Part shown: one piece after another, positions 2,964 through 18,689 of the stretch | How the letters are laid out: each line of letters opens with the position of its first letter | Position numbering within the stretch: the first letter of the stretch is position 1 | Source of the DNA: a virus | Lineage: Duplodnaviria > Caudoviricetes | Strand: one strand, 5' to 3' | Virus record (IMG/VR): IMGVR_UViG_3300042010_000129 | Location: 160,001 to 224,000 of that record | Length of the DNA stretch: 64,000 nucleotides | Notes under the pieces: model-generated | Seen by the model: only the letters and a program-made list of their open reading frames with translations | What the model was told of the DNA's origin: nothing | Databases searched by the model: none | Translations under genes and position numbers: made by a program

Positions 2964-3704
2964 TTAATCCCTGTGATGTTCTTTCAGGATTTGAGCGGTC
3001 ATTACTTCGAGGGCTTCCGGCGTTACATGAACGTCGTGCGTAGTGGAAAATTCCAGCACATTACCTTCGAGCATTTGCAGATAAAGCTGGTGAACCACAT
3101 TGACGTAAAGCTCGCGCACGTCTTTGGTTGGCAGCACGGAATCCATGACCACAGTCTGACCACCCGGCGCCTCATAGAAGAACTGCGTTTGCTGCACGTA
3201 TTGTGGTTCGATACTTTCCAGATTAATGGAAACATCGAAACGGTTGAAAGCAGTTTCCAGCAATTGCTTTGCCATCTTGCCAGTCATGTACGGCAAGTCT
3301 GGCTGACCTTTTGGATCGACCTTCGCGTGCAATTGCAATTCCAGCGTGTCGCCGTCGTGGTTCGCTTCGTACACAACGTTCAATTCGAGTTCCGCAATGC
3401 ATTCGTGCGTGCGGATTTCGTTGAGGTCGTGCAGCAGCGGTGCAAGGCACTTGCGCACGGAATCGGTGAATACTTCCACCGGGTTCATTTGTGCCACGAT
3501 TTGCTTCGCCAGCGAATCACCCGACAGGCCAGCCAGAACAACCGGAACTTTGAATTCCATCGGACTGAAAATTTCATGGCTGGTGATTTCACGATAACCG
3601 ATGCGCTTGTCTTCCAGCTTCGGTTTGCGGACACGCGGTTTAGGAGGGTTCTTTTTCAGGGAAGCCTTTGCTTTTTTCTCTTCTACTTTTTTCTTGCCAG
3701 CCAT
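2964..3704 (-). CDS. Hypothetical protein with basic N-terminus
   Basis: Start re-set to MAGKKK (3704), TAATG overlap with upstream stop. Confidence 0.7.
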   Translation of the reverse strand: MAGKKKVEEKKAKASLKKNPPKPRVRKPKLEDKRIGYREITSHEIFSPMEFKVPVVLAGLSGDSLAKQIVAQMNPVEVFTDSVRKCLAPLLHDLNEIRTHECIAELELNVVYEANHDGDTLELQLHAKVDPKGQPDLPYMTGKMAKQLLETAFNRFDVSINLESIEPQYVQQTQFFYEAPGGQTVVMDSVLPTKDVRELYVNVVHQLYLQMLEGNVLEFSTTHDVHVTPEALEVMTAQILKEHHRD

Positions 3705-16843: not shown

Positions 16844-16856
16844 CTTACACTTCCTC

Positions 16857-16883
16857 AAAAAGGGGAATCCCGTAGGACTCCCC
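16857..16883 (-). terminator. Rho-independent terminator
   Basis: mRNA GGGGAGUCC-UACG-GGAUUCCCC-UUUUU; UNCG tetraloop; the G-U pair fits the minus strand. Confidence 0.85.
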
Positions 16884-16891
16884 CGACCAGA

Positions 16892-17497
16892 TTATTGCGC
16901 TGGCTTTTTGCTCATGTCGTACAGGCCTTGATCTTTGCCGGTTTCGAACGAAGTCGCGGTACGCTCGTTCATCAACGGCGCGTATTTGTCCGGGCCATCG
17001 TTACAACCGATTTCCAGTTTGGCGGCGCCAGTAATACCGATCACGATATTATTCGGGAACACCGAACGATAGGTACACGCAGCGGTTTTGCGATCAGTCA
17101 TCATCTTTTCTTCGTGCGTGTACTTGTCACGACCTTGGTCGATCAGGTTCACGATTTTCATCGCCAGTTCTTGCGAAGCCGGGATATTGTTTTCACGCAG
17201 GAAAAGCACAGTCGCTTTCATACCTTCGGCACCGGAACGCAACTTGATTTGTTCGTTCACAGTTTTGCGGATGTTTTCGACGTTCATGTCTTGCACGCCG
17301 ATGGCTTCTTGCACCTTCTGGCTCAGGTTCGACAGAACGGCCTGACGGCTTTTGTTCGCACCGACGATACCGGCTTCCTGACGCACGACCGTGTTATTGA
17401 TGCTGACGACCCACAGGCCCAACGCAATAACGAGGCCGATAGCTACCATAGCGCCGACCGAGATAAAACCGCCTTGTTTCGATTTCATTATTTCCAT
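16892..17497 (-). CDS. LemA-like membrane-anchored protein with prepilin-like leader
   Basis: N-terminal TM followed by helical domain (LSNLSQKVQEAIGV...LIDQGRDKY), LemA-like; begins MKSKQGG|FISV. Confidence 0.6.
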   Translation of the reverse strand: MEIMKSKQGGFISVGAMVAIGLVIALGLWVVSINNTVVRQEAGIVGANKSRQAVLSNLSQKVQEAIGVQDMNVENIRKTVNEQIKLRSGAEGMKATVLFLRENNIPASQELAMKIVNLIDQGRDKYTHEEKMMTDRKTAACTYRSVFPNNIVIGITGAAKLEIGCNDGPDKYAPLMNERTATSFETGKDQGLYDMSKKPAQ

Positions 17498-17502
17498 TTT
17501 CC

Positions 17503-17607
17503 TTAGTTGGTACAGCTTTTGAGGGCAAACAACGCAACACCGACAATCAGCACAACGATCAGAAGTTCGATCAGCGTGAAGCCCTTAGATTTCTTTGGAG
17601 ATTTCAT
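17503..17607 (-). CDS. 34-aa minimal type IV prepilin-like peptide (not in ORF track)
   Basis: MKSPKKSKG|FTLIELLIVVLIVGVALFALKSCTN; canonical class III signal G|F-x3-E; GGGA SD; its stop TAA forms part of the next gene's SD (TAAGGA). Confidence 0.85.
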   Translation of the reverse strand: MKSPKKSKGFTLIELLIVVLIVGVALFALKSCTN

Positions 17608-17618
17608 ATTGGTTCCCG

Positions 17619-18689
17619 TTAGAAAAAACCGAACTTGCGATGGCGCCGACCGTAGGCGTTACGTCTGTCCAGTATATAGTTTACAGTTAATGACGGGATC
17701 ACCACGATTGCCAGCAGCGACAACGCAATCAACCAATAAGGCGGATCGTATTCGTCTTTCAGGAAGTCGTAACGTCCGAGGTCTTCGCGTTGGAAATACT
17801 GAAACGCACTATCCAGCGATTCGATATATCGGGCTGTGTCGTAACGATTCAGCTTCACCGCGTTGACGTGCATCAGATTGGAAAAGTTGAAGCCTTGCGG
17901 ATCGGTCAGGTTATCAGCCGACCGGGTAAACGAATTCGCGTTGATAACCCGGCCTTCTTTGTCCAGACGCATGATCACCACAGCATCGTTTTTCTTGCCA
18001 CCTTTCCACTTGCTTTTCAGCGCGTAATAAAAACCTTTGAAGTCGGTTTCTTCACGCAATGCAATGACGATCACGTTGACGCCGTGCATCGGCCCCCAGC
18101 GCTTTTGTGCCACGTTCAACTGGCGCGACAATTCGCGTTGGTCAACTTGCGGCGTGTTGGAGAATCCGCGCTGCACTTTGAAGCCCGCGTAAACATGCGG
18201 ATATTCCGGCAACCAACCTTTGTACTCTTCAGCGGCTTCGCGGTCGATCATCACCGTTTGTTCGCTCACGTTCTGGAAATTCAGAAAGCGTTTGCTGGTG
18301 GTGAACGGATCGCCTATTTGCGTGTTGGTGTAAATCTCCGGCGCACGAATGGATTGATGCGTGTATTCGCTGAATTTGTCACCGTCGATATCCGACACAA
18401 CGTCCCAGCGCCAGCGTGGAATTTCGCGGGTGCAGGTTTTCGTGTGGCCTTGGGAGTCTTTGCCGCAATCGTAGCTTTCAGTTTCTGGATCATAAACACG
18501 TTTTTTCTCCGCGACAGAACCGCTCAACAATTGCAGGTCGGACGCCTGCCAATACATCGGCCCGTAGTACACTGCGCACGATACGACCACACCGACAACA
18601 AAGCACGCGCCCGACGCCAGCCAGTCATGTTCCCGGTGGTGCCAATAGGCCGCAACCAAAAGGGCTGCGAAGAGATACGCAAAAATCAT
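17619..18689 (-). CDS. Multi-pass membrane protein with extracytoplasmic TPM-like domain
   Basis: 2 N-terminal TMs, soluble domain with LNVAQKRWG...VNVIVI...WKGGKKNDAVV, C-terminal TM; typical LemA partner. Confidence 0.6.
   Translation of the reverse strand: MIFAYLFAALLVAAYWHHREHDWLASGACFVVGVVVSCAVYYGPMYWQASDLQLLSGSVAEKKRVYDPETESYDCGKDSQGHTKTCTREIPRWRWDVVSDIDGDKFSEYTHQSIRAPEIYTNTQIGDPFTTSKRFLNFQNVSEQTVMIDREAAEEYKGWLPEYPHVYAGFKVQRGFSNTPQVDQRELSRQLNVAQKRWGPMHGVNVIVIALREETDFKGFYYALKSKWKGGKKNDAVVIMRLDKEGRVINANSFTRSADNLTDPQGFNFSNLMHVNAVKLNRYDTARYIESLDSAFQYFQREDLGRYDFLKDEYDPPYWLIALSLLAIVVIPSLTVNYILDRRNAYGRRHRKFGFF

Follow-up and report, generated by a model that had tools for sequence, protein, structure and literature searches.

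A headless type IV prepilin predicted in a membrane-protein operon of an uncultured jumbo phage, a candidate mimic of host pilins

Introduction

The core of type IV filaments is formed by the first ~25 residues of the pilin, the outer contacts being contributed by the head domains; docking of the subunit is driven by Glu5 together with the N-terminal amine, and prepilin peptidases have Gly-1 as their main requirement. Both T4a pili and a PilD-dependent T2SS are present in Pseudomonas. Some natural pilins, i.e. the Flp/Tad pilins and the 61-aa PilA-N of Geobacter, consist of barely more than the N-terminal helix (40-60 mature residues) and nevertheless assemble.

Several phage proteins are documented to interfere with type IV pili (T4P). 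PfsE of the Pseudomonas filamentous phage Pf4 is a peptide of ~30 residues that resides in the inner membrane as a single helix, binds PilC, blocks T4P extension and excludes pilus-dependent phages; it acts through an aromatic YAWGW motif (PMC8764522). In the same source, Tip of phage D3112 and Aqs1 of phage DMS3 are described as switching off T4P and as acting in superinfection exclusion (PMC8764522). Virus-encoded pilins that use the host assembly machinery have been described for the archaeal virus SNJ2 (PilA1 and PilA2; PMC12426801).

The gene considered here (mini-prepilin gene) is located in a 64-kb window, i.e. the whole stretch of viral DNA analysed (64,000 nucleotides). With PilA, the FimU/GspH-like minor pilins and GspG, its predicted product has in common the basic leader, Gly-1, Phe+1, Glu+5 and an alpha1-N of ~20 residues; unlike type IVa pilins and pseudopilins, it is devoid of alpha1-C, the beta-sheet head and the disulfide loop, and its gene belongs to a lytic jumbo phage without PilB, PilC and PilD genes. 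The peptide is similar to PfsE in size and in its single predicted inner-membrane helix; PfsE, however, is not pilin-like, whereas the mini-prepilin has a full class III signal and no aromatic motif. Tip and Aqs1, in contrast, are soluble and bind PilB, the cytoplasmic ATPase; neither of them is a membrane peptide or a substrate mimic. The mini-prepilin is unrelated to PfsE, Tip and Aqs1. As in SNJ2, a pilin-type gene is carried by a virus and would depend on host machinery, but PilA1 and PilA2 are full-length, build functional pili and belong to a temperate virus, whereas the mini-prepilin is truncated. From the Flp pilins it differs by their motif (G/xxxxEY), and it has approximately half the length of the Flp and Geobacter pilins.

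Results

Sequence features and classification

The mini-prepilin gene (17503..17607, minus strand) is a single ORF with an ATG start that encodes 34 aa; its coordinates, sequence and anatomy had been given correctly in the original prediction, which named no strand. The leader (codons M to G, 17581-17607, minus strand) comprises nine residues with four lysines, has a net charge of +4 and ends in Gly-1. Behind the G/F cleavage site, the mature part of 25 residues (17506-17580, minus strand; F1, E5, G14, K21, C23) begins with Phe-Thr-Leu-Ile-Glu and continues as an unbroken hydrophobic run (mean Kyte-Doolittle hydropathy of 2.9 for mature residues 1-20); the stop codon (17503-17505, minus strand) is located within the SD of the next gene. 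The SD that had been ascribed to the gene itself exists as an upstream element, but by sequence reading it is only a weak SD-like GGGAA here, 5 nt 5' of the ATG (17613-17617, minus strand), in contrast to the strong GGAGG at the equivalent place in the relative L015; in the relative L014 the gene starts at a TGATG stop/start overlap. The GC content of the mini-gene (44% at 17503-17607) is below that of both neighbours (51-52%), which is mostly explained by the Lys-rich leader and the Ile/Leu/Phe-rich helix; the ORF is too short for inferring a foreign origin.

The peptide was matched by Pfam N_methyl (PF07963) with 36.8 bits (cut-off 21.2) and by NCBIfam TIGR02532 with 30.1 (cut-off 16.3), and the TIGR02532 cut-off was passed by all six short phage prepilins examined. 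In a six-frame scan of the 64-kb window the mini-prepilin was the sole prepilin motif, and the motif was not encountered in any of 200 shuffles of the window. Judged from its sequence, the mini-prepilin displays every feature of a class III (prepilin) signal and is predicted to be a headless type IV prepilin; it is made up of this signal peptide plus the alpha1-N stalk, and its C-terminus roughly coincides with the point at which the head domain of a normal pilin would begin. The proposed reading as a minimal prepilin without head is thus borne out by profile scores above the cut-offs and by a stop 25 residues past the cleavage site. The same headless form is found in the L014, L015 and L146 variants, as seen from the stop position and the next gene.

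Other assignments were considered and rejected. A complete type IV pilin or pseudopilin would possess a globular C-terminal domain, which is absent from the peptide as it stops 25 residues past the cleavage site; no pilin-like sequence was found 3' of the stop codon, where the next gene follows 14 nt on in a different frame. Matches to the equivalogs of named pilin subfamilies (GspG/H/I/J, PilA, PilV, ComG) were restricted to the N-terminal 20 residues and far under their cut-offs, the best partial match being GspH (25.7 versus 80). A lipoprotein lipobox, defined as [LVI][ASTVI][GAS]C conserved among homologues, is not represented by the L-K-S-C of the window with its Lys at -2, and L014 has Gln at -1 and L146 no Cys at all. 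For a Flp/Tad (type IVc) pilin, Pfam gave only N_methyl at E <= 1, and the motif is the type IVa-like G/FTLIE. Neither the YxWGW aromatic motif nor any similarity to a PfsE-type protein is present in the mini-prepilin; its aromatic residues are F1 and F18 only, and an aromatic cluster is absent.

Genomic context

The upstream gene (17619..18689, minus strand; phrog_2087, PHROG match 1.4e-68) encodes a TPM-like inner-membrane protein of 356 aa. Its confident AF2 model (pLDDT 87) places a beta-rich domain, which carries a conserved Cys pair, and an alpha/beta domain between a pair of N-terminal TM helices and a single C-terminal one; the C-terminal tail is basic. With Foldseek, the alpha/beta domain was matched to Psb32 (8c7i), PG_0361 (2kw7) and AtTLP18.3 (3pvh) with a TM by target of ~0.5, and the AFDB matches of the protein were TPM-domain clusters as well as a cellular "transmembrane protein" cluster (TM 0.73); a Pfam sequence search of the 356-aa protein gave no match. 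The downstream gene (16892..17488, minus strand; phrog_1383, PHROG match 8.4e-43) encodes a LemA-like membrane protein of 198 aa, for which the second ATG (17488) is the probable start and the ATG at 17497 the alternative according to SD position and homologues. In the model, whose pLDDT of 69 is moderate, this protein is all-helical with an N-terminal TM helix; its best AFDB cluster matches belong to the LemA family (E 1.2e-5, TM 0.64-0.66). The LemA fold is backed by AFDB clusters only, since no PDB structure was matched by Foldseek with this model at E <= 0.001; PDB sequences searched with profiles of either neighbour yielded nothing meaningful. Both the TPM-like and the LemA-like protein have a conserved Cys pair in their predicted periplasmic part. 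In related phages phrog_1383 is annotated as "virion structural protein", yet the LemA-like protein appears to have a periplasmic, disulfide-bonded domain.

The mini-prepilin gene is separated from the TPM-like gene by 11 bp and from the LemA-like gene by 14 bp, with its stop codon overlapping the SD of the latter. A strong intrinsic terminator (16856..16884, minus strand) begins 7 nt past the LemA-like stop; its GC-rich stem of 10 bp is capped by a UACG loop and followed by a U5 tail (fold of -22.5 kcal/mol, z = -2.2). It was seen by direct RNA folding and missed by the consensus scan. A consensus scan for a sigma-70-like promoter of the three-gene unit found none. The arrangement points to a three-gene operon of TPM-like, mini-prepilin and LemA-like genes that is closed by the terminator. 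Read-through or fusion of the mini-prepilin with the LemA-like gene was rejected, as the frames differ and the spacing varies among relatives.

Occurrence and sequence conservation

Every long ORF of the window is located on the minus strand, the GC content is ~51%, and no tRNAs were found in the 64 kb. According to the neighbouring proteins, the nearest isolates are the Pseudomonas jumbo phages HRDY3, Lu11 and PaBG (44-60% identity), and DNA of the window was found in plant, rhizosphere, soil and food metagenomes of 11 studies, the clade being abundant in those from plants, rhizosphere and food. The source is thus an uncultured jumbo phage, and the host is probably a Pseudomonas-like bacterium, judging from relatives and habitat. 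A megablast of 6 kb around the locus gave no match in the phage collection; neither did tblastn of the 34-aa peptide (E <= 10), a result probably caused by the low-complexity filter and therefore not to be read as absence.

The identical 34-aa peptide is encoded on 21 metagenomic contigs of up to 311,690 bp from at least ten samples. Nine DNA copies (window and eight further loci) were compared and represent two alleles with three synonymous and no non-synonymous differences, whereas the flanking proteins of the respective phages differ by 2.2% and 6.1%. More distant variants occupy the same slot: in L015 (35 aa; upstream flank 68% and downstream flank 89% identical) a dN of 0.094 and a dS of 0.75 result in a dN/dS of ~0.13 relative to the window; in L014 (31 aa; flanks ~44% identical) the synonymous sites are saturated and 61% of the residues are kept; L146 (35 aa, on a 312-kb IMG/VR contig) has an upstream protein of 38% identity. 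In these four variants of the window clade the mature length is 24-26 residues, and the lone periplasmic Cys is kept in three of the four, L146 being Cys-less. An alignment of six short prepilins revealed Gly-1, Thr2, Ile4, Glu5, Ile8 and Val9 to be invariant. The comparison shows that this is a real phage gene under purifying selection.

The distribution of the gene is nevertheless patchy, so that the presumed conservation in relatives holds for those that keep the gene under purifying selection and not for others, including the nearest isolates. No N_methyl match was obtained anywhere in the genomes of Lu11, HRDY3, PaBG and a 308-kb IMG/VR relative. In these four phages the flanking genes abut, except that Lu11 has an unrelated 61-aa ORF between them; the metagenomic loci L011-L013 also lack the gene and have a gap of 19 bp, their upstream protein being sister to that of L015. 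Carriers of the gene are scattered over the tree of the upstream protein, a pattern that requires at least three gains or losses. The simplest reading is that of an old, dispensable accessory gene which would have been lost repeatedly.

From this absence in many relatives and from the GC content of 44% versus 51% in the neighbours, one could suspect that a host pilin gene was captured and has left only a non-functional remnant. However, length and synteny are conserved, synonymous change is in excess (dN/dS ~0.13), start and SD are intact in four diverged lineages, the same peptide recurs in at least ten samples, and nothing pilin-like is found past the stop. Because length, invariant residues and synonymous excess have been kept in diverged lineages, a broken gene is most improbable, and the original prediction, which had named this outcome as its refutation, stands on this point; the remnant reading is effectively refuted by the conservation pattern.

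Linkage to a widespread gene pair

By tblastn the LemA-like protein was detected in 501 phage records, which include Ackermannviridae, ICP1, PhiW-14, Lak phages, Bacillus phage G and jumbo phages of Erwinia and Serratia. In a survey of 52 IMG/VR loci (L158-L209), nearly all contained a membrane-protein gene within ~100 bp upstream of the LemA-like gene. The TPM-like/LemA-like pair thus occurs as a conserved unit in hundreds of large phages, very few of which have the mini-prepilin: a short prepilin ORF was present in four of the 52 loci (three distinct contigs) and absent from 48, and the pair without prepilin also occurs in four isolates of other genera and in the three nearest isolates.

The short prepilin of L146 is homologous to the gene of the window. 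In L095/L158 (359-kb contig) a 37-aa prepilin directly precedes a LemA-like gene that is only ~26% identical to that of the window, and in L163/L186 a 48-aa prepilin is located 7 nt before the TPM-like gene. In all three contigs (359, 312 and 184 kb) the only N_methyl match of the record is found within ~1.3 kb of the pair, placed between its two genes, just before the LemA-like or just before the TPM-like gene. Since a random position in a record of 184-359 kb would fall within the fetched 5.5 kb with a chance of ~1.5-3%, chance is an unlikely explanation of the linkage, even if the lineages are possibly not fully independent. Short prepilins beside the same pair are thus carried by a second jumbo-phage lineage, which may not be fully independent of the first.

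The junction of the pair is a hotspot for small inserts. Besides the unrelated, Cys-containing 61-aa ORF of Lu11 (L002, 3975-4160; Lu11_0343), a homologue of which is present in L014 in addition to the mini-prepilin (~3130-3310), the junction is occupied in other contigs by a 70-aa ORF, a 165-aa ORF or four genes. Short prepilins are also encoded far from the pair, e.g. a 44-aa ORF with a long hydrophobic tail (L030; L212, 1462-1596) and a 102-aa ORF with a Pro-rich linker (genome of L165; L211, 1267-1575). A separate family of viral prepilins of 63-64 aa, with four cysteines in a tiny C-terminal domain, is distributed over seven contigs (L028, 6772-6966; L053, L059, L062, L073, L127, L139).

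In the mini-prepilin clades, the LemA-like proteins start with a basic leader that ends in Gly and is followed by a hydrophobic run (e.g. MKSKQGG/F..., MNKQKG/A..., MKNQRG/S...; window 17460-17497, minus strand; L015 3010-3027 and 3142-3159; L095 1625-2206, minus strand; L014 3317-3883); no such leader is seen in their counterparts from PhiW-14 and from phages of Acinetobacter, Vibrio and Aeromonas. Within each phage of these clades the LemA-like N-terminus resembles the mini-prepilin leader, and in L015 the two genes have 16 of 18 leader nucleotides in common, pointing to an exchange or a duplication that involved the 5' ends of both. No N_methyl match was obtained on the LemA-like N-terminus; by its leader, it could be a second, Glu5-less substrate of PilD.

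Discussion

The leading, albeit tentative, hypothesis is that the headless pilin acts as a pilus poison or PilD decoy; we infer membrane insertion, processing and an effect on pili or secretion from the sequence, and hold this reading to be somewhat short of probable. No Peptidase_A24, T2SSF or T2SSE match above cut-off was found in two complete and one partial mini-prepilin records; with no phage peptidase, platform protein or ATPase found, any processing or assembly would therefore use host proteins. As co-translational SRP targeting is impossible for a protein of 34 aa, insertion and access to PilD have to be assumed. The peptide would insert into the host inner membrane with its N-terminus inside and its C-terminus outside, be cut at G/F and N-methylated by the host prepilin peptidase (PilD/XcpA type) and join the host T4a pilus and/or T2SS pseudopilus machinery as a subunit. 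Docking via F1/E5 and the hydrophobic stalk, this headless subunit would offer no head-to-head contacts, with the result that filaments might be weakened or stalled, or that the platform or PilD would be occupied. The likely pay-off would be that pilus-dependent competitor phages are excluded, or that progeny are kept from adsorbing to infected cells. The more specific proposal of a substrate mimic against type IV filament machines, i.e. a PilD-trimmed headless pilin that poisons growth or saturates PilD or the platform and is delivered within a conserved membrane operon, is possible but rather doubtful.

Several observations count for a poison or decoy: the prepilin scores are well over curated cut-offs and the motif is missing from every one of the 200 shuffles; selection on the mini-prepilin is purifying while its flanks diverge; mature length and six positions are kept; the lack of a phage-encoded peptidase, platform or ATPase above cut-off implies dependence on the host; patchy presence is typical of host-interaction accessory genes and not of core parts; short prepilins recur outside the pair, so that the peptide can stand alone; PfsE provides, by analogy, the precedent of a ~30-residue phage peptide that blocks T4P; and the nearest isolates infect Pseudomonas. 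On the other hand, linkage to the pair is explained no less well by a role with those two phage proteins, the frequent loss in L011-L013, Lu11, HRDY3 and PaBG indicates a conditional benefit, and location alone proves little, as the junction takes unrelated small ORFs too.

Such a role with the neighbouring proteins, which is the main rival and likewise possible but on the unlikely side, would make the mini-prepilin an accessory subunit of a phage inner-membrane module (TPM-like and/or LemA-like) that tunes the action of the module on the envelope: its helix might pack on the TM helices of the neighbours, or Cys23 might form a disulfide with their periplasmic domains, the pilin-type leader serving only for orientation and trimming by the host peptidase. 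The compact operon (gaps of 11 and 14 bp, a stop inside the next SD, a single terminator) speaks for this arrangement, as do the sole N_methyl match of three jumbo contigs within ~1.3 kb of the pair, the Cys pairs in the predicted periplasmic domains of both neighbours together with the lone Cys of three of the four clade variants, the LemA-like N-termini that look like weak prepilin leaders (...Q-K/R-G) in the mini-prepilin clades, and the 16 of 18 identical leader nucleotides in L015. A required subunit, however, would not be missing from 48 of the 52 IMG/VR loci and seven isolates that have the pair; moreover, the L146 variant is Cys-less, short prepilins occur far from the pair in other large phages, and a generic TM anchor would not need the F1/E5 motif to be nearly as well conserved as it is. 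A prediction of the three-protein complex (TPM-like, LemA-like, mini-prepilin) scored 0.00, which is no answer and counts neither for nor against binding.

Improbable, in turn, is a generic small membrane peptide (lysis timing, depolarisation) or a regulatory uORF coupled to the LemA-like gene, in which the likeness to pilins would be a relic. Small hydrophobic phage peptides frequently act in lysis, a muramidase gene is located 3' of the module in PaBG, and the mini-prepilin stop overlaps the LemA-like SD; but a relic motif would decay, whereas six positions are invariant across flanks of 38-44% identity at a dN/dS of ~0.13, a charged Glu within a TM helix is costly unless used, and the LemA-like gene of relatives is translated without an upstream ORF. 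Still less credible is polymerisation of the peptide by the host machine into a thin headless filament or pseudopilus of benefit to the phage, i.e. a pilin in the manner of SNJ2 and not an inhibitor, even though all docking and core-packing residues are present and natural near-single-helix pilins exist (Flp/Tad, 61-aa Geobacter pilin). The hijacking of host PilB/PilC by virus pilins is documented (PMC12426801). Nevertheless, even the shortest pilins known to assemble are approximately twice as long as these 25 residues, a hydrophobic stalk on its own would not be soluble once outside the membrane, and a new appendage would come too late to be of much use to a strictly lytic jumbo phage.

In the literature searched, no report of a phage-encoded pilin mimic, headless pilin or mini-pilin was found. 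The lack of precedent implied at the outset therefore applies to pilin-mimic inhibitors in the literature and not to prepilin starts as such, since PHROGs includes short phage families whose members begin like prepilins (phrog_13280, 67 positions; phrog_10597, 59; phrog_11263, 72), besides phrog_3433 with the annotation "pilin". The matches to these families span the first 20-30 profile positions only, and no PHROG fits the 31-37-aa form or its operon slot; the headless form of 31-37 aa, the purifying selection on it and its setting in a TPM-like/LemA-like operon appear to be undescribed. The gene was overlooked by isolate annotation and is invisible to low-complexity-filtered BLAST, which suggests that micro-genes of this sort are under-counted.

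T4P and T2SS, which have one peptidase and one assembly logic in common, are of major importance as receptors for phages, as virulence factors and as routes of secretion. If the poison or decoy hypothesis is true, no earlier phage factor against pili or secretion would have acted as the mini-prepilin does, by mimicking the pilin and not by binding PilB, PilC or PilZ, and substrate mimicry would constitute a new mechanistic class in superinfection exclusion. The peptide could then also serve as a very small genetic tool, or as a lead peptide, to switch pilus and secretion machines off. Should the peptide enter the pathway, its 25 residues would show how little PilD and the platform need for recognition, i.e. 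the minimal unit. If it instead works with the TPM-like/LemA-like pair, it would give a first means of access to this membrane module, which hundreds of large phages have conserved.
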